A DNA stretch of 64,000 bases from Cytophagales bacterium (GTDB lineage Bacteria; Bacteroidota; Bacteroidia; Cytophagales; Cyclobacteriaceae): assembly GCA_033344775.1 (NCBI GenBank), contig JAWPMT010000002.1, positions 898,685-962,684 of the forward strand, read 5' to 3'. Position 1 is the first letter of the stretch, and each line of letters opens with the position of its first letter. Position numbers and translations under genes: made by a program. The notes under the pieces are model-generated. The model worked only from the letters and a program-made list of their open reading frames with translations, made no database searches and was not told where the DNA came from. This document shows, in pieces, positions 33,854-53,116 of the stretch.

Positions 33854-35425
33854 ATGAAACCTGAATTTATACCTAATAAAAGGCCGCTGGAGTTCGTAAG
33901 AATCGTGCTCTGTCTCATACTGTTTCACCTGATCTTAGCTGAAACCAGTGCTCAGCAGACGATACCTGTTGTTCAGAATAAGGATGGGTTTTGGACCAGA
34001 GATGGGAACCAGCAAGTCATTAAATTTGACTCCATTGATGCAGCTGATGATGGCAATGACCGCATCACCTTCTATGCCGATGAGCTCAGGGTGCTGGATC
34101 CCGATGATGGAAGGGAGTTGTTCAATCTTGGAGCATCAAACAGTGTAACGATTGGGCATGATGGCCGTTTGAGGTATTTGTGGGATGACGGAACTCTTGC
34201 TTATGATATGTTCACTCCAGCTGCCAATGATCTATTCTTTTTACAATTCCATGAACCTGGAGTTAATAAAACCGTTTTTAGCTATGATCCGAAGGACGAT
34301 CACGGTAAAATCTTCTTTCCCAATACGGTTTTGACGGGCGTAATAACTAACAATCCTGCTGAATTTGCCCCGCCTAAATTAATTTTAAGCACTAAATATG
34401 GCACAAATCAAGCTAATGAGACAAAATTTATCTTAGAATCCGATGATGATAATTTTTTTATCTCTAAGCAGAGAGACAATGGTAGTGTAAATACTTTATT
34501 TGAATTGACATTTACTAGTGGGACCAGATTCCATAATGAACCATGGTACTTTGAATTAGATAATGGGAAGTATATACGTTTAGATTTGGACGGTACCAAG
34601 GAGGATCATGTCTCTTTTTGGAGAGGGCATGGTTCTTCGGAAGATCATGTAGGAAGTTTTGGAATGGACAGCACTATTATCAACGGTGCATTATTTATAA
34701 GACCCAAGAAATCTGATGATCTAACTTGGCAGGTAAAGAATACAGGTGACGCCATTAAAATTGGATCTGTGAACAGTGATGGATCTAGTCCAAACGAAAT
34801 CCTCAAGATAACAGAGCAATATGTTGTTATACGTAATGACGTAAATAACAGTCTCACACTTGATCCAACCCTTGCTCTTAGCGGTGGAGCTAATTTCTAC
34901 AGTGTAAATAACATTAGAATTGGAGCAGGCCAAGACGGGAATAGCAAGGGAAAGGCCCATATCCTTATAACAGGAGGTGAGAAAGAACCTGTCCTCATAC
35001 GCTATAACCCGACGACAGCCCCTATTACCCCAACCTGGGATACAAAAGTCAAAGATGGCTTTGCCCTGGCTGTCGAAAAAGGAATACTTTCTGAAGATCT
35101 AGCAATAGCGGAAAAAGGTCAATGGGCCGATTACGTATTCGAGGAGGACTATCAGCCCATGCCATTGGAGGAGCTGGAAAAATTTGTCAAAGAAGAAAAG
35201 CACCTACCAGGGATTATCTCTGAGCCCGAGATTGAAGCAGATGGCTTTTATCAGGTCCACGATGCGATGGTCGGTCAACTGAAAAACCTGGAAGAGCAGG
35301 TGTTGCACAACATTGCCCAGGAGAAGACCATCAAAATACAAGCGGCGCAGATAAAAAACCTGACCCAGAAGTTGAATCAGTTGGAAAAACTGGTTCAGCA
35401 ACTTGCTGACAAGGCAGGTAATTAG
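33854..35425 (+). CDS. Secreted protein with a unique N-terminal region and the shared C-terminal WxDYVF...KHLPG module
   Basis: Signal/anchor VRIVLCLILFHLILAETSAQ. C-terminal WADYVFEEDYQPMPLEELEKFVKEEKHLPGIISEPEIE..., then a heptad-like tail (35123-35422). Confidence 0.85.
   Translation: MKPEFIPNKRPLEFVRIVLCLILFHLILAETSAQQTIPVVQNKDGFWTRDGNQQVIKFDSIDAADDGNDRITFYADELRVLDPDDGRELFNLGASNSVTIGHDGRLRYLWDDGTLAYDMFTPAANDLFFLQFHEPGVNKTVFSYDPKDDHGKIFFPNTVLTGVITNNPAEFAPPKLILSTKYGTNQANETKFILESDDDNFFISKQRDNGSVNTLFELTFTSGTRFHNEPWYFELDNGKYIRLDLDGTKEDHVSFWRGHGSSEDHVGSFGMDSTIINGALFIRPKKSDDLTWQVKNTGDAIKIGSVNSDGSSPNEILKITEQYVVIRNDVNNSLTLDPTLALSGGANFYSVNNIRIGAGQDGNSKGKAHILITGGEKEPVLIRYNPTTAPITPTWDTKVKDGFALAVEKGILSEDLAIAEKGQWADYVFEEDYQPMPLEELEKFVKEEKHLPGIISEPEIEADGFYQVHDAMVGQLKNLEEQVLHNIAQEKTIKIQAAQIKNLTQKLNQLEKLVQQLADKAGN
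35123..35422 (+). other. Shared C-terminal module, copy 1
   Basis: WADYVFEEDYQPMPLEELEKFVKEEKHLPGIIS...LKNLEEQVLHNIAQEK..., coiled-coil-like tail. Confidence 0.8.
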
Positions 35426-35496
35426 TCCTAAAAACTCTAGAAATGATTTGAGGTTTCATGGTTTGGTATTCAGGGCGGTATACCAAATAATTCAAG

Positions 35497-35527
35497 AAGC
35501 TGATCGGAAAGGTCAGCTTTTTTTTTG
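35497..35527 (+). terminator. Intrinsic terminator after 33854-35425
   Basis: Stem AAGCTGATC / GGTCAGCTT (8 bp including one G-U) with loop GGAAA, followed by a run of 9 T. Confidence 0.8.
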
Positions 35528-36307
35528 ATGATCCTCCCGTTATTGGTCATAAGACCAACAGCCATACTCTAGACAAATCCCTTAACGCGTCATTCAGAGC
35601 GCAGCGAAGCATCTCCTGACGCGATAGTACCTAATAGCTGACCTCCGTCGTAGATTCCACATTGCGCTGGCGCTCCATTCTGATTGACGAAGGTTGCGTA
35701 TCATTCTCATTAGATCGTCTCCGCGACTCGGTCATTGCGGAATTTTTCGCCCAACCTTTAAAAAGGGCGAAAAATGTCCTTGCAATCTCTTCGACGATCT
35801 TTCCTGATTTTTTCATTTTACGGAATCTCAACCAAAGGAGTGCCGTCTAACAAATGAAAAGCTGAATACTTACCTAGCTTGTGACCAACAACCTTACCCC
35901 CGACAAATCCCTAGCGCGTCATTCAATGCGTAGCGAGGCATCTCCAGTCTCGATAGTACTTAAATCACTGATCTCCATCGAAGATTCCTGGAATGAAAAA
36001 CTGCCTTTCAGTTCATTGAGAGATTGCGGCATTTTTTGGCCGAGGAGTAAAATATACGACCAAAAAAGCCGCAATGACGTTTAGTTTAGACCTCCGTCGA
36101 AGATTCCACATTGCGCTGGCGCTCCATTCTGAATGACGGAGGTAGAGGCATCTTCCCTAATCGCGTCATTCGGAGTGCAGCGAAGCATCTACCGACGCAA
36201 TAGCACCTAATCTGCTGACCTCCGTCGTAGATTCCTGGAAAAGAAACGGCTTTTCTGTTCATAAAGAGATTGCGGCATTTTTTGGCGTGGAAGTAATGTA
36301 TCCTATG

Positions 36308-36480
36308 CCCAGGAGTGGTGTACTCATCCAGAAAAAGCAGATATCAGTCTTTACCTTGAGGAACCTTATTATGCGTTCCGGAAATTAACCTGGAATGGGA
36401 ACTAATTGCAAAATTCAGTTCCGGAGGTGAAGACGCGGCCCCACGGCCGGGGAGTGAAACAAAGACTGTTTCCATTTTTC
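36308..36480 (+). repeat. RE-A element copy 3
   Basis: Contains GTCTTTACCT (36347-56), AGGTGAAGAC (36425-34), CGGCC-CCAC-GGCCG (36436-49), and GAAACA-AAGAC-TGTTTC plus a T-run (36456-79). Confidence 0.8.
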
Positions 36481-36662
36481 GTGGAAAATAGAGGATACTC
36501 TCAATTGCGGCTATAAATCTAGAAAAATTGTTTGGTTGCACTAAGCTTGTCGAAGGGTAGACGAAAGCACGGATATCACAAAAAATGCCTACTTCGACAC
36601 GCTCAGCATGACATTTTTTAAGGCTAGTAACCTCACTTTGGAGAATAGATTGAATCAAAGTT

Positions 36663-36958
36663 AAAAAGCAGATATCAGTCTTTACCTTGAGTAACCTTAT
36701 TTTGCGTTCCGGTAATTAACCTGGAATGAGTACTAATTGCAAAATTCAGTTCCGGAGGTGAAGACACGGCCCCACGGCCGGGGAGTGAAACAAAGACTGT
36801 TTCCATTTTTCGAAGAAATAAGTGATCTTCTCAAGTGCTGCTATCAACCCATTCAAAAAACAACTAACCACATCACCACAAACTGCAAGTATGGCTTATG
36901 TTTCAGGCATCTTCCCTTATCGCGTCATTCTGAGCGCAGCGAAGCATCTCCCGACGCG
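36663..36958 (+). repeat. RE-A element copy 4, with the same 3' extension as copy 1 ending in RE-B
   Basis: Aligns with copy 1 across both core and extension (..CACCACAAAC.GCAAGTATGGC.TATGTT..GGCATCTTCCCTTA.CGCGTCATTC..). Confidence 0.8.
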
Positions 36959-37065
36959 ATAGAAACTTGTCCTGCTAACCTCCGTCGTAGATTCCACATT
37001 ACGCTGCCGCTCCATGCTGCATGACGGAGGTGGTGAGCGAAGCATCTCCCGACGCGATTTACACA

Positions 37066-37101: not shown

Positions 37102-37129
37102 CTTGAATTACTACTTAGCTCAAATCAGG

Positions 37130-37687
37130 TTACTGACTCTTGGACATTTGTTCAAAAGTCTCAATCACAAGATCACTTACATTCGTTTCTTCCTGGGCAT
37201 AAAGTACCATGGGTGGTCCATTCACCGCTCTGACATCCGTGTTCAATATGTGAGTATAGCCATACTGCTTCGCTACCTCTTTAATGGCCAGCTGTAACTC
37301 ATCCAAAATAGGCTGAACAAGAATACTATCCTGTCGGGCGACCTCCTCTTCCGATCCCTGCTTGAAAGCCTGGATGGCCTGAGAGAGGTTTTGAAGCTCG
37401 GTCAGTTTATCCTGACGGATCAGTTCATTCATGGAGGCAGAGTCTTTTACAAAACTTTGTTGCTTTTGCTGAAAGTCCTGGATCTTTCCTTGCAGTGCCA
37501 GATTCAATTCGTAGATGGTGGTGTCCAATTTGCTTCGTTGCTCCTGGTAAACAGGAATTTGGGATACCGCACCATTGATACTCAGATAACCAATCTTTGA
37601 CGTGGTTACTTTCTCAAGCTTGAAACTTGAAGTGATTACCAGCAAGACCAGTATGATCAAAATCGAAGGTTGAAGTAACTTTTTCAT
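37130..37687 (-). CDS. OmpH/Skp-family periplasmic chaperone
   Basis: 185 aa with signal peptide MKKLLQPSILIILVLLVITSS. A long Q/E/K-rich helical arm, and a C-terminal AKQYGYTHILN.. motif typical of OmpH proteins. Confidence 0.75.
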   Translation of the reverse strand: MKKLLQPSILIILVLLVITSSFKLEKVTTSKIGYLSINGAVSQIPVYQEQRSKLDTTIYELNLALQGKIQDFQQKQQSFVKDSASMNELIRQDKLTELQNLSQAIQAFKQGSEEEVARQDSILVQPILDELQLAIKEVAKQYGYTHILNTDVRAVNGPPMVLYAQEETNVSDLVIETFEQMSKSQ

Positions 37688-38210: not shown

Positions 38211-40106
38211 ATGAATTTCCATTTAAAAGAAAAGCGAAAGCCCTGGACCTCATCAGGAATGAGCAATCGGGGTTCTGACCTATGGGTGATCAGGGGTCCT
38301 GGACGTTTCGGGTTGCGAATGGCCATGTTGTTTGTCCTTTTCATAGCTGTATTTCACAGTTCCCATGCCCAGGACAGTCCAGCAATGGTCGTTGAGTCTG
38401 AACTCCAATTGAACCAGCCTGGTGGAACATCCGGCAGTAGCATCAGGTTTAAGATGACAAACCTGGCTTTATCAGATTGGCTCTTGCGTACGGACCTTAA
38501 TTCCGGGAATATCGAATTATTATCAACAGACTTAACGAGAGGATTTCACTTTACCCAGAACGGGGAATTGGGAATTGGTATTGCTGATCCTGATGAAAAA
38601 CTGGAGATTCTCGGTAATATTGCTCTGAATGTTACAGCTGATAATTTAGGAGGATCAAACTACAGGTCTTCGGGGTTGATTCTTAGCTCGACTATCTTTG
38701 ATTCATGGAAGTCTGGTGCTATCTATGGCACGGTAGGTAATCCCAATGACATAAGTGATTCTCCGGGTGGTTTGGCTTTTTATACCAAGCCGAAAGGATC
38801 AGTAGATGTTGATCTAGAGGAGAGAATGAGAATCGACTATCAGGGCAATGTGGGAATCGGTACTGATTCACCTACCGAAAAGCTCGATGTAGCCGGAACC
38901 GTAAAAGCCACTGCTTTTATTTTAGATGATGGTTCGCAATTGACTGGTTCCTTGTGGTCAGGGGATAATACTCTAGCGTCCTTTGTAGGTCGAGTAGGAA
39001 TAGGAACAGCCGGTAGCCCCAGTGCGGGCCTTGAAGTAAAGGATGGTATTAACACGAGAATTAGAGTCAAGGGTGACAATAACACCGACGGTGTTGACTT
39101 TGGGCTGCAAGATCACAGACTTGTATTGATGAACAGAAAGGAGGGAAGTGACATAGATTTCTTAACTAACGACGGCAGTATAACGTCGAAAGTAAAAATA
39201 AAAAGTAACGGACAGGTTGGTATTGGCACAGCACTGCCAGATGCCCAACTTCATGTGGAAGGATCCGGTATCGATTTGTTGGAATTATGGTCTGATGATG
39301 GTACAGCCTCATCTATACACGGGTTGGTCAAAAATCTTCAGAGCAACTTATTTGAGTTAACAGGAACCATCGCCTTCGAAAGAGATGCCGGTGGTGATAT
39401 AACAAAAAATGGGATAGGGTTGTTCGCAAATAAAATTACTATAGGTGCTGGGGCAACTCCGCTAGCGACATTCGACACACATAATGGTATTATTAATTTT
39501 TCGGATGATGTAACCATAGCTGATGATTTAATAGTGGAGAACAACTTTACAGTGGAGGGAGACTTAATAGTAGATACCGATACGGAAGTGAATGATCTAA
39601 AGGTAGACGGGGTACTAACCATAACTCCCAAATCCGATGACCTTTTTGCCATAAAAGCCAATGGGCCAGTACACATTAGCCGAAAGGAAACGAATGGTGC
39701 TGCTGATTCATTCGAAAACATTGATGTAGATGCGCTGGATCACGCAACCCTTTTTGTGGAAGATGGTATTGTCTCTGAAGACGTGATCTACACCACTGTC
39801 GGTGATAATTGGCCCGATTATGTTTTCGAAGAAGATTACGAACTCCATGACCTGGGCGAACTAGAGGATTTTATCATAAAACATAAACACTTGCCAGGTG
39901 TCATTAGCCAGCTAGAAGTAAAGGAAAAAGGGCTTGTAAGCGGCAAGCAGATGACCATTACCTTGTTGGAAAAGGTCGAAGAACTTACTTTATATACCAT
40001 CCAACAGCACAAGGCCCTTCAGGAGCAGCAAGCGTATAATGCCGCCTTATTGGAGAGGCTGGATGCGCTTGAGGTAAAAGTAAGTAGTGCCCGCGAAAAC
40101 AAATAG
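38211..40106 (+). CDS. Secreted tail-fibre-like repeat protein with the shared C-terminal module
   Basis: Signal peptide MAMLFVLFIAVFHSSHAQ (true start may be ATG 38259 or 38319). Four G-x-[VL]-G-I-G-[TI]-x2-P-x3-L-[DEH]-[VI] units, for example GNVGIGTDSPTEKLDVAGTVKAT. C-terminal WPDYVFEEDYELHDLGELEDFIIKHKHLPGVIS... Confidence 0.85.
   Translation: MNFHLKEKRKPWTSSGMSNRGSDLWVIRGPGRFGLRMAMLFVLFIAVFHSSHAQDSPAMVVESELQLNQPGGTSGSSIRFKMTNLALSDWLLRTDLNSGNIELLSTDLTRGFHFTQNGELGIGIADPDEKLEILGNIALNVTADNLGGSNYRSSGLILSSTIFDSWKSGAIYGTVGNPNDISDSPGGLAFYTKPKGSVDVDLEERMRIDYQGNVGIGTDSPTEKLDVAGTVKATAFILDDGSQLTGSLWSGDNTLASFVGRVGIGTAGSPSAGLEVKDGINTRIRVKGDNNTDGVDFGLQDHRLVLMNRKEGSDIDFLTNDGSITSKVKIKSNGQVGIGTALPDAQLHVEGSGIDLLELWSDDGTASSIHGLVKNLQSNLFELTGTIAFERDAGGDITKNGIGLFANKITIGAGATPLATFDTHNGIINFSDDVTIADDLIVENNFTVEGDLIVDTDTEVNDLKVDGVLTITPKSDDLFAIKANGPVHISRKETNGAADSFENIDVDALDHATLFVEDGIVSEDVIYTTVGDNWPDYVFEEDYELHDLGELEDFIIKHKHLPGVISQLEVKEKGLVSGKQMTITLLEKVEELTLYTIQQHKALQEQQAYNAALLERLDALEVKVSSARENK
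39810..40103 (+). other. Shared C-terminal module, copy 2
   Basis: WPDYVFEEDYELHDLGELEDFIIKHKHLPGVISQLEVKEKG...LLEKVEELTLYTIQQHKALQEQQ... Confidence 0.8.
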
Positions 40107-40268: not shown

Positions 40269-43028
40269 ATGAATAATACGATGAAAAGAAATCAAATGAT
40301 AAATATAAGAGGTGTCCATGGGGTGTGGCTCAAGCGGCTGTTCCTGTTCATTCCTTTGATCATCCTGATGATTGAAAGGTCCGAGGCTCAAAGTGCCAAG
40401 AAATTTACTCAAAATCAACTCGAGATTAATAAAGATGGCATTGAAAGTAGCGCCTTTTATCTGTTACAAGATGATCAAGGAAATAAATGGAAGTTAGAAA
40501 GTAGTAGAACAGATTTTAAAATAAAGGGACCTGATTCCAATGGCGGAACTTTAATGAGGCTCATTATTCTAAATAATGGTAAGATTGGTATAAATACGCC
40601 CACCCCTACTGTAGAACTAGAGGTAGATGGCACGATTAAAGCCACCACTTTTGATGGAGATGGTTCGCAATTGACTGGTATCGATGCTAGCCAGATCGCC
40701 AATTTGCCTACAGGTGTGGGTAGTTCCCTGTGGTCAGAGAACGGTTCGAAAATATTCTACGATCAAGGTAGAGTGGGTATAGGAACCACCAACCCCACTG
40801 CGGCCCTTGAAATAAAGGAAAGTGTTAACACGAGAATTAGAGTTAAGAGTGATGTAAACACCGACGGTGTTGACATTGGGTTGACAGGTGACAGACTTGT
40901 ATTGATGAACAGACGGCAGGGAAGTGACATAGATTTTTTAACTAACGACGGCAGTATAACCACGAAAGTAAAAATAAAAAGCAATGGCAATATGGGCATT
41001 GGCACGACATCACCTTCCGAAAAACTAGAGGTAGCTGGTACTGTAAAAGCCAGTGCCTTACATCTTCATGACGTTGGTTTAGCAAGGATGAAATTCACTT
41101 CATCAACGACCGGTGAAACAGCAAACGACGGGTTCCACGTAGGGACTTCCGGCACTGTGGATGCCATTATTAATAACAAAGAAGCTGGTGACTTGAACAT
41201 TGCGACTAACAACCTTACACGCATAGTAGTTAAATCTGATGGCAGAGTAGGAATTGGTACCACTTCCCCGGATGAAGCGCTTGTGGTAGCCGGAAATATC
41301 AAAGCCACTGAATTTATCGGGAATGGTTTCGGATTGACGACCTTAAACGCCGCGAATCTGACAGGTGTTCTTCCTGAACTGGATGCTTCCAACCTCATGA
41401 ATATCGATGCCGCGCAGATCAACAATTTATCGCAGGATCTGCAGCTCAATGGTACGATTCTAACACTTGGTGATTCCAGTTCTGTAGATCTCGCGAATGC
41501 GGGATTCCTGGGAACGGACAATTCGCTACCTATAAACGTCACAGATGGCAAAATTGGAATAGGAACCTTGACCCCAGAACGAACATTCCATTTTACCAGA
41601 GTTGGCGTGGACGATGGTAATGATGGAGGTATGCGAATCGACCGGTCAACCTATGGTCCGGTCCTCGTCATGGCGAAGTACCCTGGGGGTACGCCAACCA
41701 ACTATCTGGACAATCCAGGTATGTACAGTCCGGAAAATGTAATGATTATGAGAACCAACCCAAATGATTTCACATTCTCCTATAGTCCAATTCCGGAACT
41801 TGGTCATTCGGGTAGAAAAGATCTTCTTACGATTAAGAAAGATGGAAAAATAGGTATCGGGAAAGTCAATCCTTCTAAGAAGTTGGATGTCGATGGTACG
41901 GTAAAAGCCAGTGCTTTTGTAGGAGATGGTAAAGATATCACCAATATCAATCCTGATAACATTACGGATTTAGATGCGAGGGTCTCTGCTGTTGTTGAGG
42001 GCAATTCCCTGTGGTCGGAAAACAGTGATAAAATATTCTACAACGCTGGATTTGTGGGTATTGGCAAGGACAACCCAACGGAAGCATTGGACATAGTAGG
42101 TAATATCCAAGCCACAGAAGATATCCAATTGAACGGGACGGGTACATTAAACGCCATAAGAGCGGATGTAGATGGCACCAAGCATTGGATCCACTTCTTT
42201 GGTGAGTTTACCGGTGTTGAGGAGCACCTCCGGCATAAAATGAATTTTCATGCCGACTCAGGAATCACCCTTGGGGCGTGGCCGAATCCAATCGTGAATA
42301 TCAATAATAGTAATCGATCGGTGGGGATAAACCTGAACGGTCAAAATCCAACTGAAAGACTGGATGTCAATGGAAATGTAAAAGCAACCGGATTTATTGG
42401 AAATGGTAGCGCCCTGGAAGACATTGATCCTGATCACATCACCGGCCTGGACGCTCGCATCTCTGCAGTAGGTGGATTTGATGGCGGGTTGGTGAACAAT
42501 AACATTACGATTGCAGCTCATCAGGGTTTAACGATTAGAAACTCAGAGAAAGGATCTTTAGCCGACCCAATGGTAGAAGGGCTAGTGATCTATGATAGGA
42601 ATTTCTTCGGGGCTCAAGAGCCAGGTGGAAACTATTTTGACGGTGATGGCGGAGGTCTTGCGGTGTATAACGCGGATGACGGATGGAGCGCCATAGTAGA
42701 TACCAAAAACATGAAACATCTGAGTGCAGTATTCCGCTCGGTAGTCTCTACAAGGTTTGCCGTAAGCGCTAATTCCTCGTTTGATGACTGGCCAGATTAT
42801 GTTTTCGATGCGGAATATGAGCTTACTCCGTTGGAGGAAGTAGAAGCCTATATATCGAAAAACAAGCACCTTCCTGAAGTACCTTCCGCTGCTGATGTAG
42901 CTGAAGAGGGTATCGATCTCGGTAACATGGACAAGACTTTGCTGAAAAAAGTGGAGGAGCTTACCTTGTACATCATCGAGCAAAATAAACGCATCGAGCA
43001 ATTGGAAGCGAAGCTCGCTGATCAATGA
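40269..43028 (+). CDS. Secreted tail-fibre-like repeat protein (919 aa) with the shared C-terminal module
   Basis: Signal/anchor LKRLFLFIPLIILMIERSEAQ. Eight G-x-[VIM]-G-I-[GN]-T/K..P...L-[DE]-V-x-G-x-[VI]-[KQ]-A-[TS] units. C-terminal WPDYVFDAEYELTPLEEVEAYISKNKHLPEVPS... Confidence 0.85.
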   Translation: MNNTMKRNQMINIRGVHGVWLKRLFLFIPLIILMIERSEAQSAKKFTQNQLEINKDGIESSAFYLLQDDQGNKWKLESSRTDFKIKGPDSNGGTLMRLIILNNGKIGINTPTPTVELEVDGTIKATTFDGDGSQLTGIDASQIANLPTGVGSSLWSENGSKIFYDQGRVGIGTTNPTAALEIKESVNTRIRVKSDVNTDGVDIGLTGDRLVLMNRRQGSDIDFLTNDGSITTKVKIKSNGNMGIGTTSPSEKLEVAGTVKASALHLHDVGLARMKFTSSTTGETANDGFHVGTSGTVDAIINNKEAGDLNIATNNLTRIVVKSDGRVGIGTTSPDEALVVAGNIKATEFIGNGFGLTTLNAANLTGVLPELDASNLMNIDAAQINNLSQDLQLNGTILTLGDSSSVDLANAGFLGTDNSLPINVTDGKIGIGTLTPERTFHFTRVGVDDGNDGGMRIDRSTYGPVLVMAKYPGGTPTNYLDNPGMYSPENVMIMRTNPNDFTFSYSPIPELGHSGRKDLLTIKKDGKIGIGKVNPSKKLDVDGTVKASAFVGDGKDITNINPDNITDLDARVSAVVEGNSLWSENSDKIFYNAGFVGIGKDNPTEALDIVGNIQATEDIQLNGTGTLNAIRADVDGTKHWIHFFGEFTGVEEHLRHKMNFHADSGITLGAWPNPIVNINNSNRSVGINLNGQNPTERLDVNGNVKATGFIGNGSALEDIDPDHITGLDARISAVGGFDGGLVNNNITIAAHQGLTIRNSEKGSLADPMVEGLVIYDRNFFGAQEPGGNYFDGDGGGLAVYNADDGWSAIVDTKNMKHLSAVFRSVVSTRFAVSANSSFDDWPDYVFDAEYELTPLEEVEAYISKNKHLPEVPSAADVAEEGIDLGNMDKTLLKKVEELTLYIIEQNKRIEQLEAKLADQ
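42789..43025 (+). other. Shared C-terminal module, copy 3
   Basis: WPDYVFDAEYELTPLEEVEAYISKNKHLPEVPSAADVAEEG...LLKKVEELTLYIIEQNKRIEQLEAKL. Confidence 0.8.
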
Positions 43029-43194
43029 AGAAAGACTCAGAAAAAACTGATTGGAGCAAGTCTCATGCCTTAGTTCAATGATCCTGGCATCGCCATAGAT
43101 CAGTGAATGAGCACCTTCCTTGGGTAACATGAGATAATAGACAGGGTGAGTAGGGCTTTTGCACTTCGGTGCGGAGGCCCTTTATTTTTTAGGA

Positions 43195-43591
43195 CAGTCG
43201 CAGGTCGGATGAGAACATACCAGCTCCGTCATCCAGCATGGAGCGCCAGCTATTTTCGTCTCCGCGACTTGGTCATTGCGGATTTTTTGGTCGTATATTT
43301 TATCCCCGGCCAAAAAATGCCGCAATCTCCTAAAGAACTGAAAGGCAGCCCAGTCTGGCGCGCGTTGCGAAGCTAAAACGCGTGCTCATTCTATAAATCT
43401 CTTACTGAAAGCAACGCTCTGAATGACGCGATAAGGGAAGATGCCACCACCTCCGTCATGCAGAATGGAGCGCCATTTACGATCGTCATTGCGGCTTTTT
43501 TGGTCGTATATTTTATCCACGTCCAAAAAATGCCGCAATCTCCTAAAGAACTGAAAGGCCGCCAGTCTGGCGCGCGTTGCAAAGCTAAAAC
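43195..43591. repeat. Mosaic repeat block: two tandem composite units (half RE-C, RE-D hairpin, RE-F, RE-E)
   Basis: RE-D is GTCATTGCGG.TTTTTTGGTCGTATATTTTATCC.CG.CCAAAAAATGCCGCAATC, at 43272-43327 and 43485-43540. Each copy is followed by TCCTAAAGAACTGAAAGGC and then RE-E, TGGCGCGCGTTGC.AAGCTAAAAC, at 43356-43385 and 43568-43591. Confidence 0.85.
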
Positions 43592-43809
43592 ATCAGTTGA
43601 TTATTTTGAGATATTTGAAACTACCCTGCTACATCATATGTCTTGATTTTGCAGTCTGGAGATGGATTAGGTGGGGGAGAGTTTCCTAATAGAGAGATCG
43701 TTTGAGTCTGATCGCATGGGCTAAAAACTGGCCCTGGGCAAAAAATGGAAGAAACCTTGGTATTTACATCAGAAATAGTTGTCTTAATCATAAACTCATA
43801 CTGACTGAC

Positions 43810-45900
43810 ATGAGAGAGGTTAGCAAGTTCAATCTGGCATTATCGGTATTAAATGCCGTACCATTACATAAGCTTAACTTCCATTGGCTTTTAATGATAG
43901 CAATGATTTTGCTTAGTGTAAGTCCCAATAGTATTTCAGCTCAATCTCAGGCCCCTAAGTTCATCAGGACTTATCAGTCAGGAGTATTTCTGAATAGTGG
44001 TGTGCCATATGTGGAGGCTCATACCGAGGAGTCTCTTAAATTATTTGTGAATATGCAGGAGGCGTTTTCTCTTGACGAAAATGAGATTCAGAATACAGGC
44101 AATTATGGAGTTTTGTCCCCTTTACCCCCTGGGTCCCTAATGACAGTAGAGATTTATGATCAGAATATTTTTGAAAACAAATCAAATGACTTCATTAACC
44201 GGGATGGGCTCCTTTATGGTATAAAAATTTTCGGGGCGCCCTATTGGGAAAGAAATAGCTATACTGTCAAAAATTGCCTTTATGGCAATCGTTATAACCT
44301 CCATCAAACTCCAACAAAAACCCCGGATGATTTCGGTACTGTCAAATGTCCTGGGTTTAGTCGCGCGAGTGACGATTGGCGAAGTAATTACTTGGCGTCG
44401 GCAATGGAATACCTCAAGAGGGAAAACCCGAATGATGACTTTAGATATCCCTTTACTCTGAATGGACTTCCCGCTGTATTGAGGGTCACCATAGAGGAAG
44501 AGGAACCCATGACCGTAACGAATAGCGTCATTAGGGATTCTCATATTCCTGGGATACCCAAGTTAAAAGAGATTTTCAATTTTGATGAACCACAGAAACG
44601 GCAACCCATTATTACTATGGCAAATGAGGGATATGATGGAACTGTTCACGAAACTAATTTCATTACAGAGAACAGCCCAACATTATTCACTGAACAAGGA
44701 AATGGATGGACCAAACCATCGAGCAAGACAGACCTGGGTTTTGAAAATTTTAATTCAGGGTCTGGATCATGCATTGAAGAGGAATGGCCAATAGAGCGTG
44801 TATATAAGTGGACTGCCAGGTATGAAGAAGGTACCATTTATGAGAATCCCGTTAATTTCTTTGTAAGAGAAAAAGATGTCAAGTTTTATAGACCAGATGG
44901 TACTGCCAAGCGTCCGGAGAAACCTTTACTTTTTTATGATCCCAATCATTCTAATGAGAAGGCTTGGGATGTTATCGTATTTGAATATGCCAAGGCATTG
45001 GGGCGGATTCCTCGAATTTTGAGAGGAGGTGTAACAAACATATATATGAAAACAGAACCACGTGCGAGTGCATGTGGTCATGATAGCAAATCAATGCTTT
45101 TAAGCAGTGACTTTCGTTCTGAAAAAATGGAAGAAACTGTCTTGCATGAAGCGGTTCATATTACATTGGATGAATACCTTGTAGATTTTGATTTGCCTCA
45201 CCTCCCTCATCAACACGGGGATCCAAACTGGGCAAAATCAATTGCAGCGGATGGAAGAAACTATTCGCAATACGTCCAAGAAAATGATTGGACTTTCAAG
45301 AGGGAGCAAGTTTCGGAGCATTTTGCCGTTTTCCTCTGGTTGAGAAATGACTATTTTAAGAAAAAGGCCAGGAACGGTGGTCAGACTAATTGGATACAAC
45401 TTGCCAAAAGACTCAGTAATCAGGCAATTGACTTTATGCCAAACAGAATCAATTATTTTCAGGATTACCTGCTCACCAGACCCTATAATGGTATTTCCTA
45501 TCAAAATTGGAGTGAGGCCATTTACCCATTGCAAGATAAGCGTATCATCGATTTGCCGTTTGACCCGGTATCAACAGTCGCGGCCAGGCCTGACCTATCT
45601 GAAAGTGGTGTAACAGAGAGAGACATCCCTGCACAATTAGAAGCATGGTCAATTGTCGTATATCCAAATCCTTCAGAAGGGAAATTTTCAGTCAACCTGA
45701 CTGTCACAAATCAGGATGTAATACCATACCGGATAACGGACCTTGCAGGGAGAACTGTATATTCCGGAACATTTATTGATCTTCGTGAAGGGAGTAACTC
45801 ACTGGAGGTTGATATGGGTGATCTGGTGGAAAAGGGAGTTTATATTCTCCAGCTTCATGGTACGAATTTGCACCAAACTAAACGTCTGCTTATCAGGTGA
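43810..45900 (+). CDS. Secreted putative zinc metalloprotease (HExxH) with a T9SS C-terminal sorting domain
   Basis: Hydrophobic leader LLMIAMILLSVSPNSISAQ. VLHEAVHITLDEY carries the HExxH motif. C-terminal WSIVVYPNPSEGKFSVNL...GVYILQLHGTNLHQTKRLLIR (about 45645-45897) is a Por/T9SS CTD signature. The track start at 43702 is a TTG; ATG 43810 is the likelier start. Confidence 0.75.
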   Translation: MREVSKFNLALSVLNAVPLHKLNFHWLLMIAMILLSVSPNSISAQSQAPKFIRTYQSGVFLNSGVPYVEAHTEESLKLFVNMQEAFSLDENEIQNTGNYGVLSPLPPGSLMTVEIYDQNIFENKSNDFINRDGLLYGIKIFGAPYWERNSYTVKNCLYGNRYNLHQTPTKTPDDFGTVKCPGFSRASDDWRSNYLASAMEYLKRENPNDDFRYPFTLNGLPAVLRVTIEEEEPMTVTNSVIRDSHIPGIPKLKEIFNFDEPQKRQPIITMANEGYDGTVHETNFITENSPTLFTEQGNGWTKPSSKTDLGFENFNSGSGSCIEEEWPIERVYKWTARYEEGTIYENPVNFFVREKDVKFYRPDGTAKRPEKPLLFYDPNHSNEKAWDVIVFEYAKALGRIPRILRGGVTNIYMKTEPRASACGHDSKSMLLSSDFRSEKMEETVLHEAVHITLDEYLVDFDLPHLPHQHGDPNWAKSIAADGRNYSQYVQENDWTFKREQVSEHFAVFLWLRNDYFKKKARNGGQTNWIQLAKRLSNQAIDFMPNRINYFQDYLLTRPYNGISYQNWSEAIYPLQDKRIIDLPFDPVSTVAARPDLSESGVTERDIPAQLEAWSIVVYPNPSEGKFSVNLTVTNQDVIPYRITDLAGRTVYSGTFIDLREGSNSLEVDMGDLVEKGVYILQLHGTNLHQTKRLLIR

Positions 45901-45928
45901 CCTGTAAACTATTTTCTGCTTTGCCATT

Positions 45929-46410
45929 CTGGCGAGTGTTGCGTATCATCCTGGCGCGCGTTGCGAAGCCAAAACGCGTGCCCATTCAGCAAGTGCTGCT
46001 CAATTTTTTATCCAAAACCGAAGCCGGCTTGGTTAGTCCAAGGCATTTGGTTGTCATGATGATGATAGAATAGCGGATTGAGAATTTGGTTTCAGCTGAT
46101 TTTTTCTTGTCAATCCATTTCGAGTCGCGAATTGAGGGCAGTCCGCATGCACGGAAGAATAATCAAAAACATGATGATTGTAATTGAGCATTCTATTTGT
46201 TTTTAAGGTCACGAAAACCACGGTTGCAACTCTCACCACCTCCGTCATTCAGAATGGAGCGCCAGCGGAATGTGGAATCTACGACGGAGGTCTACCATTA
46301 CGTGATTGCGGCTTTTTGGATGTTTTTTATTCCACTGCCAAAAAAATGAGAATGGCGCGCGTAGCGAAAGCCAAAAAGTGTACCCATTCATCAAGTGCTA
46401 CTCAATTTTG
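45929..46410. repeat. Mosaic repeat block (RE-E twice, inverted RE-C, partial RE-D)
   Basis: RE-E at 45952-45981 and 46353-46384, each followed by CCATTCA.CAAGTGCT.CTCAATTTT. RE-C in inverted orientation at 46238-46291. Partial RE-D (GATTGCGGCTTTTTGG...CCAAAAAAATG) at about 46303-46348. Confidence 0.8.
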
Positions 46411-46691
46411 TTATCTGTCGGTCAAAGCACTTCCTTCCGGAACTTTTCTGGTGAGGACCACCGGCGGGTCAATAAATTTCTCAGAACTAATGGTCATCAC
46501 GCATTGGTCATGAGATCATAGAAATTGAAAGAAAGTGATGTGTTTCGTAAATGTGGGGGCTCTGGGCGGGAGCCCCTCATACTACACTTTCATAGTGAAC
46601 AGCAAACCAGGTCCGCTGACAAGATTAAAGAAGAAGCTGATGGAGTTAATTCTCGTGCTAAGTAAGAACATGAAGTAATTTTTTCACACAA

Positions 46692-49600
46692 ATGAAACGC
46701 TTGAGATCATTTCAATTGCTTTGCTGCTTGCTGGTGACTTGTGCTAGTTTGGAAGCGCAGCAACCATTAGGCTTTTACTTTCCTGACAGGCCCTTTATTA
46801 ACACCTCGGACCCTAATAATCGAAATGTGAATCATCCAGATGGATCCGATATGCAGGATTTGAAAAGAGCTACAGCATTTATTGCGGGTTCGGCAGATGA
46901 ATTTTGTTCTTGTACGCTGATGAATAATGTCAGGCAGGACGGTAGCATTTTAGTAAGCACCTCGGCTCACTGTTTCCCCAATCGAGACTCGGGTAGTGAG
47001 ATTGGTGTGGTACTTACGTTCAATTATGAAATGTCTGATGCCCTAAACAGGGGCACGGACGTTGATGATGTGGTGATCACAAACGCTTATAACGTTTCAG
47101 GTACGTTATTGTACAAGGATGAAATAAGTGACATGGCCTTACTCGAACTTCGGGTCGAAGGAATCGAAAACTGGCCTGAAAATGTATATGCAGCGGGCTG
47201 GGACCTGTCAATAGAAAACACTTTATCATTTAATATTTCCCATCCTCAAAGTGATCACAAAAAAATATTCATCAATCCGGAAAGTCAAGCCTTTAAATGG
47301 AAGGACTTGCAAAGTTTCAAGGGTTACGCTTTTGAAATGACTGGCAGATGGAACAATCGTAGTACGCATCTTGAGGGCGGGGCGAGCGGTTCGGGATTCT
47401 TTAATGCAAATCAGGCGTTAATTGGCATTTATAGTGGTTTTCACCCAAGTTCTGGTGCCTATTTTTCCTCTGCACTTTCCAATGTCTGGTACAATGTAGA
47501 TGGAGCCCAAGGCCTTCGGAACTGGCTTGATCCCGATGAGACCTGGATCACCCAAATTCCTGGGGGGTATTTGTCTGATATGATCCCGGTACAGTCTGAT
47601 TTCATGCTGGAAATTGGCGGGGGGGAAACATATAGTTCAAAGGGAATTAACCCATCAGACCCTTCAAGATTAGAGGAAGGCGTTCATTATCTACGGCCAG
47701 CGATTATATTTAATGATCTGGCCTCCTTCGGAAGTTGGGAAAGCATATTGGGCATTAATATGCCTGATCCTAATGCATCAAAAGTGGTTTTGACCGTTTA
47801 TGAGATCATCTGGGATGCAGAAATGGCTCAATATCGCGAACAATTGTTGTATGGTACTTTTGCCAACAATACGATCTCTCCAAATGCACCGGTATCTGCT
47901 GGTTTCCGAGGCGCAGGCTGGGATTGTAACGACCTTCCGGTCGGATTTCCTCCCTGTGAAAGAAATACAGGATTTTGGCTTATCGATCGCCCAGTTGATT
48001 GGAGTACGACCATAAAACCGGCCTTTGCCAGAGCATTGAGCCTTCAATCGTCACATGAAGAGGGTGTTCAATCACTTTGGGATGTAACTATCCCGGTTGT
48101 GATCCGACTGACTAATGTAGGAAGCGAGTCTGTCGAGGTGAGAGCAGTGAGCTATCCAGCAGAAGTTCCGAGAAATGCCAGACAATTGTTTAAACCGAAA
48201 GAGTTGGCTCAGCAATTCAGGAGCTACAAATACCCATCCAGCCGGGGAGCCAATGCCGATCCTATTTTCATCAATCGATTGAGCGCCGAGCAGAACGGAC
48301 AACAGCTACAAGAAATAAAGTCAGGCAATAACGGAGGATATTTAAACTTGGGCAATCCCAATTTTAAGATCGGTCCGGTAAAGGTCGGCCCTACTGCAGG
48401 GGATCTCGAACTTACGTTGGATATTGTGAATCAAATCTTCCCGTACAATTACAAAGTATGGATCGATTACTTCAACTCAGACGATTTAGAGGGCAGGTGG
48501 GAAATTGACCCTGAGGATCCATCTCATAGTTATACGTACAATTTCGTAAATGATCCGGTAGCTCATCCCATGGAGGAAATTGCCGCTGGTTTCGCTAGTG
48601 ATGGTACGTTGTTGGTTAATCACCCAATGCCGAGAGCCCGTGAAATAAAGCTAAATCCAGGAGAGAAGCGCCTGACCCGTATGCGAGTAGCGGTTTCGAA
48701 TGAGTTGATCACCCATGATGGGGAGTATGGTATCGGCGAAGTAGAGGATTACCTGATTGAATTAGTGGCACCCACTTGTGAGGAACTGAGGCCAGTTGAA
48801 TATGAGGACTTTGCGGAAGCAGTGCTTCCTTATTGTGGTGAAGGAGGTTATTTAGAAACGAAAGGGCCCTTGACAGAATACTATCAGGAGACCGTCCCTG
48901 GTAGTTTGGAATTTCACACAGGTAAAAAGTCCAATGTTAGATTTGCTTCAGCCAAAGCAACCGGAAGCTGGTACACCAGTGGTGCCAATGCAATTAGCGA
49001 TAACAGAGTGGATCCGGTGCCTAATCCAGCCGATCCCGACTTTGACCAATCACTGATGGCGATCTCTACCAACGATCAGGAGGCTGATCCTGATGAATTG
49101 GTGGATCAGGAGCTCCGAATGGACGTTTACTATCCGTTGCCGAAAGAGGGGATCACCCTGGATGAACTGTCGGCTTTGCCGTTGATCATCTACCACTTTG
49201 GTGGTGCCTTCATGTGGAATACCCGTCAAAGTAAATTGACGGAAAAGACCTGCCAATGGTTGGCCAGCAAGGGTTTTGTAGTAGCAGCCATCGACTACCG
49301 TGTAGGTCTGTATGGGTATGAGGAAAAAGTTGGGTTGCGAACGATGCTTCGGGCCTGGCAGGACAGTCGTGCGGCAACCAAGTGGTGGCGGATGCCGGAG
49401 AACGAAAACGAAGTGAATGACGATTTTGAGGAATTGTGGAAGGTGGATCAATCAAAGGTCTACGCACTGGGGCATAGTGCAGGCGGGATCACCAGCCAGA
49501 CGAATCTATTCCTGACAGAAGTCAAATACGAAAACGAACATGAATCTGACAACTTTCTGGAAGCTACCTCCGAAGGGTATGGTTACGGTGGATGGGATGA

Positions 49601-50570
49601 TAGTGGCAATCCGAACTACCTGACATTTGGCCTGGAGGATTACGAGCCCATTCCCTGCCTTAACATCCAGGGACACAACACCTGTGATGTGTTGAGTAAA
49701 GCTACTGATGGCAGCTATGGCAGTTATCAAGGCAGTGATGGTGAGTTAGCTGCATTAATCACACAAAAACTCAATACTTACGCTTCCATGGATGGTCGCG
49801 TTGATAAATCCGTATCCTTTGCGGGTGCGCTGGCGAAGACAGACTGGATGTTAACCCCCCCGTTTAGATATGCGGCCGAAATTCATCATCATGAGGATGC
49901 GGTTGTTCCGTGGGGTCATGACTACCCCTTCAATGGAGGACGCTTGCCATGGGGGCGGATCATCAGTGTGTTTCCCAATTTTTCAATTTCCAAAATTTAT
50001 GGCGGTGGAGCCATGAAAGAAGCTTGGGACGATGCCCTGTTACCAACTGGTGGGACATTTGAGTTGTTAACCTTGGATGGTCCGGATCAAGGTGGTATGA
50101 ATGGTCAGGCCAGTTACCATGTTCCGGAATACAAATTTGGAAGCAACTACGATGATTACTTAAATGGAGCAGACCCGGAAATAGAAAATAAGATCATGTA
50201 TTATGTGGATGCCTTTTTCACAAAGGATTGGACTTCTGGTGTCGCCGGTCGTGAGATCAATAGTGAATTTGAAGCAGGAGAGGAGAAGCCCAAACCGGAA
50301 ATGGAGGTCGAGCCTACCTTCAAAGTGTTCCCTAATCCTGCCAATAACCAATTAAACATTCTGACTGAAGTTCGTCAGGTTGGGCCCCTTCAGATCCGGA
50401 TCTATGACTTTCAAGGCCGGAAAGTATACGAACTATCCAGAGACGAAATTGGTCAAGGTCATCAGTTGATCACCCTTAGGAATCTGGAGCTTGCTTCCGG
50501 GACCTATGTGGTGGCCATAGAGGCTGGAGATTTGGTTAGGAGAGAAAATATTTTGATCAAAAGAGAATGA
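46692..50570 (+). CDS. Multidomain T9SS cargo: S1 (trypsin-fold) serine protease-like, GEVED region, alpha/beta-hydrolase (esterase/lipase-like), T9SS CTD
   Basis: Signal peptide MKRLRSFQLLCCLLVTCASLEAQ. VSTSAHCF (His), ISDMALLEL (Asp) and EGGASGSGFF (Ser) in trypsin-fold order. GIGEVEDYLIE. IIYHFGGAFMWN and ALGHSAGG (HGG / GxSxG esterase motifs). C-terminal FKVFPNPANNQLNIL...GTYVVAIEAGD (about 50319-50567). Confidence 0.8.
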   Translation: MKRLRSFQLLCCLLVTCASLEAQQPLGFYFPDRPFINTSDPNNRNVNHPDGSDMQDLKRATAFIAGSADEFCSCTLMNNVRQDGSILVSTSAHCFPNRDSGSEIGVVLTFNYEMSDALNRGTDVDDVVITNAYNVSGTLLYKDEISDMALLELRVEGIENWPENVYAAGWDLSIENTLSFNISHPQSDHKKIFINPESQAFKWKDLQSFKGYAFEMTGRWNNRSTHLEGGASGSGFFNANQALIGIYSGFHPSSGAYFSSALSNVWYNVDGAQGLRNWLDPDETWITQIPGGYLSDMIPVQSDFMLEIGGGETYSSKGINPSDPSRLEEGVHYLRPAIIFNDLASFGSWESILGINMPDPNASKVVLTVYEIIWDAEMAQYREQLLYGTFANNTISPNAPVSAGFRGAGWDCNDLPVGFPPCERNTGFWLIDRPVDWSTTIKPAFARALSLQSSHEEGVQSLWDVTIPVVIRLTNVGSESVEVRAVSYPAEVPRNARQLFKPKELAQQFRSYKYPSSRGANADPIFINRLSAEQNGQQLQEIKSGNNGGYLNLGNPNFKIGPVKVGPTAGDLELTLDIVNQIFPYNYKVWIDYFNSDDLEGRWEIDPEDPSHSYTYNFVNDPVAHPMEEIAAGFASDGTLLVNHPMPRAREIKLNPGEKRLTRMRVAVSNELITHDGEYGIGEVEDYLIELVAPTCEELRPVEYEDFAEAVLPYCGEGGYLETKGPLTEYYQETVPGSLEFHTGKKSNVRFASAKATGSWYTSGANAISDNRVDPVPNPADPDFDQSLMAISTNDQEADPDELVDQELRMDVYYPLPKEGITLDELSALPLIIYHFGGAFMWNTRQSKLTEKTCQWLASKGFVVAAIDYRVGLYGYEEKVGLRTMLRAWQDSRAATKWWRMPENENEVNDDFEELWKVDQSKVYALGHSAGGITSQTNLFLTEVKYENEHESDNFLEATSEGYGYGGWDDSGNPNYLTFGLEDYEPIPCLNIQGHNTCDVLSKATDGSYGSYQGSDGELAALITQKLNTYASMDGRVDKSVSFAGALAKTDWMLTPPFRYAAEIHHHEDAVVPWGHDYPFNGGRLPWGRIISVFPNFSISKIYGGGAMKEAWDDALLPTGGTFELLTLDGPDQGGMNGQASYHVPEYKFGSNYDDYLNGADPEIENKIMYYVDAFFTKDWTSGVAGREINSEFEAGEEKPKPEMEVEPTFKVFPNPANNQLNILTEVRQVGPLQIRIYDFQGRKVYELSRDEIGQGHQLITLRNLELASGTYVVAIEAGDLVRRENILIKRE

Positions 50571-51295: not shown

Positions 51296-51874
51296 ATGTA
51301 TAGAATTTTTCTTTTTATTATATGTGGTGGACTCTGCCATATTAGTCAGGCGCAAGGCATCACACTCGGAACCATCAATCAACCCGAGGGCTTTACTTCG
51401 TTCGCGAATACCAAGATTTTTGTTTTGGAGAGCTATCGGAACGTGGATCACATGAAACAGGTAGTGAATGATGATCCGGACTTGAAAATAGTTGAGGACT
51501 ATAACTTTTGGGTGGAGCGGGGTGTCCTGACCTCATGGCTCAAATATGCGGGAGTCGAATCATGGGCAGATCATGTATTAGAAGCGAACTATCCATTACC
51601 GAAGCTGGAGGAAGTCAAGGCTTTCATCAATACCAACAAACACCTGCCGGGCGTTCCCTCAGTACAGGAGATGAAAATGGCGGGAGGTCAAAGCATGAAA
51701 GCCATAGACAGGATCTTACTGACCAAGATCGAAGAACTCTATCTGTATCAGATCGAGGAAGAAAAGAAACTGAGCCAATTGCAGGTGGATGAAGCAATGG
51801 ATGAGGATCGGACGCTTCGATGGCTCTCTGAACTTGGGAAGGAACTGGATGAAGCGTTACCCGGAGACGAATAG
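51296..51874 (+). CDS. Small secreted protein consisting almost only of the shared module
   Basis: Signal peptide MYRIFLFIICGGLCHISQAQ. WADHVLEANYPLPKLEEVKAFINTNKHLPGVPSVQEM...LLTKIEELYLYQIEEEKKL (51563 to about 51790). Confidence 0.8.
   Translation: MYRIFLFIICGGLCHISQAQGITLGTINQPEGFTSFANTKIFVLESYRNVDHMKQVVNDDPDLKIVEDYNFWVERGVLTSWLKYAGVESWADHVLEANYPLPKLEEVKAFINTNKHLPGVPSVQEMKMAGGQSMKAIDRILLTKIEELYLYQIEEEKKLSQLQVDEAMDEDRTLRWLSELGKELDEALPGDE
51563..51790 (+). other. Shared module, copy 4
   Basis: Variant with H for Y and L for F in the WxDYVF box; the rest is conserved. Confidence 0.75.
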
Positions 51875-51910
51875 CCCCAACAATAATTAGTGAATTAATC
51901 AATTAAGCGC

Positions 51911-53116
51911 ATGCAACGAAACTTATTTAACCTGTGCTGTCTGCTGATAAGTACGCTGATATCGATGATGTCCTCGGCCCAGGCAACCAACAGTCCCTTT
52001 GACAAAAGGGAACATACCTTTTTGCAATTTAATGGACCCCTTGGCCTGGTGGGTGGCGTTTCAGATCCCAATACGATCAACATCAACAACGCAAATAATC
52101 AGTTAGCGGAGACGATGCTTTGGGTAGGAGAAGGCATCGTATCCAATAAATTGTGTGTATTTAAAATTCCCGGTTGGGCGGATTATGTATTTGACCCGGC
52201 CTACAAAACGCCATCCCTTTCCGATGTGGAGGAATTCCTTTCGGAGCACAAACATTTACCAGGTATTCCATCTGAAGAAGAAGTGAAGGAGCATGGTTAT
52301 TCCCCTTCGGAGCTGTATGCGGCCTACCTGGCCAAAATCGAAGAACTCACGCTATTGACCATCGATCGGCAAAGTAAGCTTGAGGCCTTAAAAGCCGGGA
52401 TGCCTTCCTATCAGGTATACGACGATCTGTTAGGCCAATTGGCAAATGTAGAGGACAACTCTCTTCAGGAGGCTACCATATCCGATGTTGAAAACCCAGC
52501 AATGGTTAGCGATGAATTGGCTGAAGCAAGCATGGACGGAGCAACCGATGGTATGCTATACCAAAATTCAAAGCTTTTTACATGCGATGACAGTTTGTTC
52601 GTGTTGGGAAGAATGGTGATTACGAAGGACTATAAGAATCTTCCCGATAGCGATGATGAAGTCCTTTGTCCGACCTGCGGCGATGATGATGAAGATGGGG
52701 ACAACAATGATGGCCGCAGTGAGACTTTTCCGGTCGTCAATGATTTAAATCCCGAATTCCTGCTCTACATCAATGGAGGGACCACCACCTATGATTATAT
52801 CTGCCGGAACCTTCATGAAAAGTGGGGAGATTACGTTTTCGAGGATTCCTATCCTCTTATGTCGTTAGAATCACTCAGCACATATGTGTCTACCAACAGG
52901 CATTTGCCAGGCATCCCATCGGAGGCTGAGGTGATGGCGAATGGTCTGGAGTTGAGCGAAATGACAGGCAAATTCATCGTCAAGATAGAAGAGCTGTTTT
53001 TATACCTGCTACAACAGGACGAAGAGATCAGGCGGATACAAGCGTGGCATACGCCGGAAGGAAGAGACCAGCTTATTGTTCAGTTGGCTGATCAAATTAA
53101 ATCCCTGAAAAAGTAA
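51911..53116 (+). CDS. Secreted protein carrying two copies of the shared module separated by an acidic, Cys-containing linker
   Basis: Signal peptide LCCLLISTLISMMSSAQA. Module a is WADYVFDPAYKTPSLSDVEEFLSEHKHLPGIPSEEEV...IEELTLLTI. The linker contains CPTCGDDDEDGDNNDG. Module b is WGDYVFEDSYPLMSLESLSTYVSTNRHLPGIPSEAEV...IEELFLYLL. Confidence 0.8.
   Translation: MQRNLFNLCCLLISTLISMMSSAQATNSPFDKREHTFLQFNGPLGLVGGVSDPNTININNANNQLAETMLWVGEGIVSNKLCVFKIPGWADYVFDPAYKTPSLSDVEEFLSEHKHLPGIPSEEEVKEHGYSPSELYAAYLAKIEELTLLTIDRQSKLEALKAGMPSYQVYDDLLGQLANVEDNSLQEATISDVENPAMVSDELAEASMDGATDGMLYQNSKLFTCDDSLFVLGRMVITKDYKNLPDSDDEVLCPTCGDDDEDGDNNDGRSETFPVVNDLNPEFLLYINGGTTTYDYICRNLHEKWGDYVFEDSYPLMSLESLSTYVSTNRHLPGIPSEAEVMANGLELSEMTGKFIVKIEELFLYLLQQDEEIRRIQAWHTPEGRDQLIVQLADQIKSLKK
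52175..52395 (+). other. Shared module, copy 5 (internal)
   Basis: See the parent CDS; Trp codon at 52175-52177. Confidence 0.75.
52823..53045 (+). other. Shared module, copy 6
   Basis: See the parent CDS; Trp codon at 52823-52825. Confidence 0.75.

Follow-up and report, generated by a model that had tools for sequence, protein, structure and literature searches.

A conserved C-terminal helical module of variable-headed secreted proteins in Bacteroidota is a candidate oligomerisation cap

Introduction

What does a conserved C-terminal sequence do when otherwise dissimilar secreted proteins of one gene cluster all end in it? The question is raised by a 64,000-nt stretch (hereafter the window; positions 898,685 to 962,684 of contig JAWPMT010000002.1, assembly GCA_033344775.1) of a 1.1-Mb contig from a Cytophagales metagenome-assembled genome (MAG). 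Five open reading frames (ORF1 to ORF5), all on the + strand and all annotated by NCBI as hypothetical, carry there a module composed of a WxDYVF ... HLPG[IV]PS box and a coiled-coil tail. The original prediction, made from the nucleotide sequence alone, could assign this module to no characterised domain and suggested an oligomerisation, docking or cell-surface anchoring device shared by different heads.

Here we propose, with moderate confidence, that the module is a C-terminal cap that sets the register of three chains and oligomerises secreted fibres with variable heads. The role would be a familiar one; what appears to be new is the domain family and its linkage to the 3-coathanger stack domain and to toxin loci.

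Anatomy of the module

The five ORFs and six module copies lie where they were originally placed. ORF1 (R8G66_07820; 33854..35425; 523 aa) joins a Sec-type leader and an orphan head, for which only 2 homologues were found among 5.8 billion proteins, to a C-terminal module (35033..35422). ORF2 (R8G66_07830; 38211..40106; 631 aa) and ORF3 (R8G66_07835; 40269..43028; 919 aa from the first ATG, or 910 aa from the NCBI start 9 codons downstream) each have a leader, a run of GxVGIGT units and a C-terminal module (39720..40103 and 42699..43025, the latter with a short zipper tail). ORF4 (R8G66_07850; 51296..51874; 192 aa) consists of a leader, an N-terminal part of ~70 aa and one module (51473..51871), and ORF5 (R8G66_07855; 51911..53116; 401 aa) of a leader and two modules, one internal (52085..52420) and one C-terminal (52733..53113), with an acidic linker between them. 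The leaders, predicted to be signal-peptide-like, are hydrophobic and end in ..AQ in all five proteins; that of ORF2 is set ~35 aa into the ORF when translation is counted from the first ATG. A hidden Markov model (HMM) built from the six copies and run against the six-frame translation of the whole window returned exactly those six, with E values of 1e-34 to 1e-40.

The conserved unit begins ~25 aa upstream of the box tryptophan, beyond the originally described extent of ~75-100 aa, with a strand-like segment of the form [YF]xLxVxGxIxAxxVxV. The module totals ~125 residues and comprises, as seen in the ORF1 copy, the strand-like segment, the box and a heptad leucine-zipper helix. Thirteen columns are invariant across the six copies: W, D, V, Y, L, H-L-P, S, G, E-E and L. 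At the DNA level the copies are 55-62% identical; they are therefore old paralogues, and recent duplication within the source genome is rejected as the origin of their similarity.

AlphaFold2 (AF2) modelling of the ORF2 copy, residues 504-631 of the protein, from a 126-sequence alignment yielded an all-helical structure (predicted local distance difference test score, pLDDT, 90.5; predicted template modelling score, pTM, 0.75): an extended N-terminal segment is followed by three short helices and a C-terminal helix of ~50 residues. The 72-residue box modelled alone reached a pLDDT of 92.1. Regular heptads span positions 86-128 of the module alignment, where I/V/L occupy position a and Leu occupies position d; the exceptions are Asn at position 107 (an a position) in 24 of the 126 sequences and Gln at position 96 (a d position) in 103 of them. 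The models and the heptads agree with the predicted shape, a compact box followed by a coiled coil; the heptad residues are not diagnostic of any one oligomer state.

A large family missing from the libraries

The module region of the five ORFs is unmatched by any profile in Pfam, NCBIfam, PHROGs or PADLOC, and the anti-phage defence profiles of PADLOC match no part of these proteins. Pfam likewise leaves the module unmatched throughout 96 family representatives. Sequence searches of the PDB with the module gave coiled-coil noise only (e.g. the proteasome subunit Rpt6), and Foldseek found nothing significant in the PDB for the whole module (best E 3.4) or for the box alone (best E 7.3). Neither the module nor the 3-coathanger domain is described in the literature that we searched, Zhang et al. 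2012 included. The module is accordingly a domain family without a model in the libraries searched, a solved structural neighbour or a description that we could find, as its original status of unassigned had implied. The sole Foldseek match in BFVD was A0A5J6VKV2, an uncharacterised protein of 719 aa labelled ‘Megaviridae environmental sample’ (E 7e-4, 28% identity); this may represent either a homologue in a giant virus or an error of binning.

The family extends far beyond the source genome. A word-indexed search with the six-copy profile returned 3,466 proteins. Nearly all of them are named ‘hypothetical’; stray labels include ‘cell wall anchor protein’, ‘BZIP transcription factor’ and ‘SlyX’. 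When 1.84 billion cluster representatives were scanned exhaustively with HMMER, 38,398 clusters (defined at 50% identity) matched at E<=1e-3, with 28,184 of these at E<=1e-30. Almost all are from Bacteroidota. The ‘bZIP’ (basic leucine zipper) name is explained by the Leu heptads; we rejected that identity, as the proteins have Sec leaders and no bZIP Pfam match, and the likeness is confined to the heptad. By cluster count, the module represents one of the larger annotation blind spots among the secreted proteins of Bacteroidota, and it lies behind thousands of annotations as ‘hypothetical’, ‘bZIP’ or ‘cell wall anchor’.

Scanning one genome per species gave at least 600 matches, and 589 of those listed were confirmed; among the matches listed we kept 80 loci with 161 module ORFs for a survey (loci are given below by L numbers). 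The 80 loci span all orders of Bacteroidota and include a few MAGs labelled Thermoanaerobaculia, Opitutales, Planctomycetota or Balneola. Throughout this set the module is a C-terminal element, with a median of 3 residues between its end and the C-terminus. A hydrophobic leader is present in 141 of the 155 module ORFs of at least 190 aa; a lipobox-like motif occurs in only 2 of the 155, and we rejected lipoprotein anchoring. The proteins typically have 250-600 aa, and their heads are mostly orphans, the few recognisable ones being leucine-rich repeat (LRR), fn3, Laminin_G_3, PKD or Ig domains. The idea of one module on different heads holds well outside this genome.

Tandem arrays of module genes are frequent and reach 14-15 paralogues (L012, L026 and L049, the last being the 15-gene array of Sphingobacterium spiritivorum ATCC 33861). 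Paralogues of one array share 63-84% identity in the box, 36-39% in the heads and 29-41% in the zipper tails, whose length varies. Divergent tails of varying length are what would be expected if each paralogue paired specifically with its own kind.

An alternative to S74 on tail-fibre-like stalks

ORF2 and ORF3 match the tail-fibre PHROGs 9942 and 18345 (E 9e-19 for ORF2, 1e-25 for ORF3) through their GxVGIGT units. ORF2 has 4 of these units (~38562-39276), as predicted; ORF3, for which 8 had been counted, has 7 canonical units and a degenerate eighth (~40578-42399). This phage tail-fibre-like stalk (PHROGs 9942/18345, PF06598) is unmatched in ORF1, ORF4 and ORF5. The N-terminal parts had been described as unrelated, which does not apply to ORF2 and ORF3: their stalks (39017-39229 and 40793-41005) have a 213-nt stretch in common at 85% identity. 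As this is far above the 55-62% of their modules, the stretch suggests a recent gene conversion or partial duplication.

On such stalks the module occupies the position that the S74 intramolecular chaperone (PF13884), known from endosialidases and tail fibres and exemplified by endoNF, T5 pb1 and MyRF ICA, takes elsewhere, namely the extreme C-terminus, and both provide a coiled-coil end. Of the ORF3 stalk's 120 best homologues, the module terminates 17 and the S74 motif SDxRxK is present in 20; no protein has both. Moreover, the N-terminal parts of two S74 proteins in the surveyed loci, L014 11549-13198 and L065 14158-17271, are homologous to 39 and 82 module proteins, respectively. Because the stalks are shared and the two endings never coincide, module and S74 are alternative, mutually exclusive endings of the same kind of stalk.

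The two endings differ in substance. As first noted, none of the five ORFs ends in S74 or in the C-terminal domain (CTD) of type IX secretion system (T9SS) cargo: the SDxRxK motif and the T9SS CTD are both unmatched in them, and PF13884 gives no match at E<=1 in the five ORFs or the 96 family representatives. We rejected homology with S74, since hhalign aligns coiled-coil tails only; with the tails removed, the probability was 24% over 14 columns, all in the upstream strand segment. Unlike S74, the module has no Ser-Lys site, its box is predicted to be all-helical, and it also occurs internally and in two or three copies per chain.

These differences bear on whether the module is itself a removable chaperone, one that would cleave itself off autocatalytically after folding, as S74 does, by means of its invariant Asp, His and Glu residues. 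The shared architectural slot speaks for this reading, as do the invariance of D33, H57, E87 and E88 in the module alignment and the position of W31 at the module boundary. We nevertheless consider it very improbable, given that the SDxRxK Ser-Lys dyad is missing, that no homology with S74 extends beyond the coiled-coil tail, and that internal modules of two- and three-module chains run straight into further domains. The near-invariant Ser of HLPGxPS, which we tried as a catalytic residue, is replaced by Pro in one phage copy and was rejected.

Occurrence of the module on phage fibres

A tblastn search of 50,697 GenBank phage genomes gave no module copy, and IMG/VR contains 29 module loci. Those numbered L081-L097 encode leader-bearing, host-type proteins. 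The loci L098-L107 encode leaderless proteins of 459-2972 aa with the module at the end, and two of them are confirmed as phage by PHROGs: in L101 a baseplate wedge gene lies directly upstream, and L104 contains a major head protein gene.

Its place at the distal end of a virion fibre makes it unlikely that the module is an envelope anchor, and this part of the original proposal is not supported: the module ends leaderless phage tail fibres and has no membrane or lipid anchor feature. For a surface location, too, the five window proteins offer only a Sec leader. The reading can be stated more broadly, as a module that binds an envelope component or that is itself recognised by a translocon as a new export signal. 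The analogy is with the T9SS CTDs (type A, TIGR04183/PF18962; type B, TIGR04131), which are likewise conserved, Bacteroidota-centred C-terminal domains of leader-bearing proteins with variable N-termini; type A cargo genes also adjoin module genes. Phages of these hosts could, in addition, reuse an envelope-binding domain at the fibre tip. However, the module matches neither TIGR04183 nor TIGR04131, it is predicted to be helical (pLDDT 90-92) where the T9SS CTDs are beta-sandwiches, and it contains no hydrophobic segment or lipobox. It is also present in Opitutales and Thermoanaerobaculia MAGs and, unlike receptor-binding tips, it is the most conserved part of its proteins. We regard an anchor or export signal as the least probable of the readings weighed here.

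Copy number and a proposed three-chain cap

The number of modules per chain hints at assembly in threes. The top-scoring proteins of the family (P0121-P0126 and P0128) carry three modules, and no chain exceeded three among the 149 top representatives examined from the 38,398 clusters; as bit scores are additive per copy, chains with four or more would head the score list. Natural three-module chains, such as L115 3875-8034 and L116 1073-4720, place for example a Laminin_G_3 or LRR/PKD head before three modules. Of seven two-module genes examined, five (in the window, L061, L110, L111 and L112) adjoin a one-module gene; L114 probably does so as well, and L113 does not. The pair formed by ORF4 and ORF5 is conserved in L112, where orthologues with one module (5394-5999, 201 aa, 33% identity, E 2e-33) and, collinear with ORF5, two modules (6001-7329, 442 aa, 33% identity, E 4e-60) are followed, as in the window, by a T9SS cargo gene. 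Tandem arrays make part of the adjacency of one- and two-module genes expected by chance, so this evidence is suggestive. The combinations of three single modules, one plus two, or three in one chain are nevertheless exactly those predicted by three-fold assembly.

The sequence of events that we envisage would begin with export through Sec, after which the zippers and boxes of three modules would associate. The modules might be contributed by three chains, by a one-module and a two-module chain (as ORF4 and ORF5 would do), or by a single three-module chain. Their association would set the register of the chains and act as the nucleus from which the upstream fibre or head folds, beginning at the C-terminal end. 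In contrast to S74, the module has no Ser-Lys site and would probably stay attached. Secreted proteins formed in this way would make up an oligomeric family whose binding heads vary greatly. On phage fibres the corresponding task falls to the S74 chaperone and to T4 fibritin foldon. Foldon and the other C-terminal trimerisation nuclei of viral fibres would be functional parallels, as small elements that register three chains and nucleate folding; foldon is a beta-hairpin propeller of ~27 residues, whereas the module is helical, has ~125 residues and brings its own zipper. The oligomerisation role in the original suggestion fits the architecture, the finding that module and S74 exclude each other, and the limit of three copies per chain. 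If a three-chain cap is correct, the module would be a second, non-proteolytic solution for the folding of tail-fibre-like proteins and could supply a compact trimerisation tag.

Several points weigh against this assignment. The oligomeric state is one that we infer, and Ile or Val at a with Leu at d is, taken alone, more typical of dimers. ORF4 and ORF5 are almost headless, and the head of ORF1 is not recognisably fibre-like. The invariant D33, H57, E87 and E88 could reflect catalysis or metal binding and not structure. Finally, a pure folding cap leaves unexplained the linkage of module genes to coathanger-bearing T9SS cargo and to RHS proteins.

Linkage to T9SS cargo, coathanger and RHS genes

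That linkage is pronounced. A protein with a T9SS type A CTD, encoded on the same strand, follows 34 of 86 last-module genes, against 30 of 782 other genes of the same loci, and the gap to it is a median of ~15 nt. Many of these downstream partners carry the NCBIfam ‘3-coathanger stack domain’ (NF045639) just before the CTD, and some contain little else; examples of partners so encoded are L014 15248-15778, L007 11366-11998, L016 690-1223, L024 8120-8692 and L079 10317-12047. In L014 the module genes concerned are at 8957-10339 and 13444-15246, and in L007 at 10493-11350. A local HMM for the domain found it in 37 of 1024 ORFs in the 80 loci, and 24 of these 37 proteins are the immediate downstream neighbours of a module gene; seen from the other side, 30 of 86 module runs have a coathanger gene within two genes. 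None of the module proteins of the 80 loci contains the domain. In an Opitutales MAG (L050) the coathanger partner is kept without a CTD. In Flavobacterium (L032, L067) the gene order gltA, module gene, coathanger/CTD gene is conserved. At least 16 loci have genes for giant RHS or SpvB-TcdB-RHS proteins beside a module gene or array, and some of these giants contain the coathanger motif.

These observations would fit a docking adaptor, in which the box would bind a partner (T9SS type A cargo, typically through its 3-coathanger domain, or an RHS/Tc-like toxin) and the zipper would only set the stoichiometry, so that heads would be displayed or delivered with the partner by piggy-back export or surface tethering. 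The higher conservation of the box within a genome than between genomes also fits, as does the cargo gene that starts 12 nt past the ORF5 stop. On the other hand, the coathanger domain is absent from the window in all reading frames, where the three cargo neighbours have CTDs without it, and from the phage module loci; ~40-50% of loci have no partner of these kinds. The case is built on gene adjacency, from which physical contact does not follow, and a passenger without a CTD has no known route across the outer membrane. Docking, whether as a rival of the oligomerisation cap or as a function added to it, is a possibility that we entertain tentatively.

Somewhat less probable, and in our estimation unlikely, is a wider reading, with the module as the coupling hub of a hitherto undescribed display or delivery system of Bacteroidota. 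Three-module caps would then join interchangeable heads, drawn from arrays of up to 15 paralogues, to coathanger partners, these being T9SS cargo or RHS/Tc-like toxin cocoons. If this were true, fibres lacking a CTD could reach the cell surface, and toxins would acquire a targeting device. The linkage to the 3-coathanger domain, itself equally unstudied, and to RHS/Tc-like toxins in any case offers a lead on CTD-less surface export and on toxin targeting.

Phage tail-fibre genes can be paired with a downstream assembly or adhesin gene, as in T4 gp37/gp38 and with Tfa of Mu and P2. The gene order at module loci resembles these pairs, the fibre gene coming first and a small partner gene following within a few nucleotides. 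Unlike Tfa and gp38, to which no relation was detected, the partners of module genes are coathanger and T9SS-CTD proteins, and the pairing is one of gene order.

Beside the SpvB-TcdB-RHS giants and the module genes we also observed secreted proteins of ~145 aa with one YD/RHS-type motif (YxYDxxGNRxxR) and a T9SS CTD (L002 10502-10993, L035 17220-17657, L045 10309-10734 and L078 10463-10897), which could link RHS cocoons to T9SS export. An OmpH/Skp-like gene adjoins module genes in four unrelated loci: the window, L052 (10358-10906), L053 (10316-10849) and L116 (465-1001). As OmpH flanks module genes in these four only, we rejected a general association. A response regulator is encoded in 18 of the 80 loci.

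Gene organisation of the window

The three cargo neighbours of the module genes in the window all lie on the + strand and have T9SS type A CTDs. The first (43702..45900; PF18962 and TIGR04183) is downstream of ORF3; the second (46692..50570), with trypsin-like and esterase-like domains, is upstream of ORF4; the third (53128..59430), of 2100 aa, has a metallophosphatase domain and is the gene next to ORF5. Between ORF1 and ORF2, on the - strand, lies the OmpH/Skp-like periplasmic chaperone gene (37130..37687; PF03938), which is possibly associated with the cluster.

Terminator-like hairpins are located 3' of ORF1 (35494-35522) and 3' of ORF3 (43152-43181), and we found no terminator-like site in the gap between ORF2 and ORF3, which are probably co-transcribed, judging by this layout. 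The hairpins suggest separate transcription units for ORF1 and for ORF2-ORF3, and a later one that includes ORF4, ORF5 and the cargo gene at 53128..59430. A scan for sigma-70 promoters was uninformative (37 sites against 37.5 expected).

At the head of the + strand cluster, a hybrid sensor with tetratricopeptide repeat (TPR), histidine kinase, receiver and AraC domains (30091..33246) is a candidate regulator. It is one of two paralogous hybrid sensors of this same domain composition in the upstream region (163-12141, 22163-23425, 24972-28043 on the - strand, 28767-29321 and 30091-33246), which also encodes a 3992-aa multi-module non-ribosomal peptide synthetase (NRPS) with a thioesterase domain, a tyrosine integrase and an extracytoplasmic function (ECF) sigma factor. 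The presence of an integrase raises the possibility that the secreted-protein cluster belongs to an island.

The gaps between the cluster genes are occupied by a dispersed family of intergenic repeats (33400-33586, 35570-37044, 43218-43603 and 45951-46303). An Rfam scan of the window, repeats included, gave no match. The repeat units, of 27-190 nt and 75-100% identity, stand in both orientations and have the look of repetitive extragenic palindromic (REP) or miniature inverted-repeat transposable (MITE) elements; spurious ORFs lie inside them at 36344-36658 on the - strand and at 36737-37024 and 46184-46513 on the + strand.

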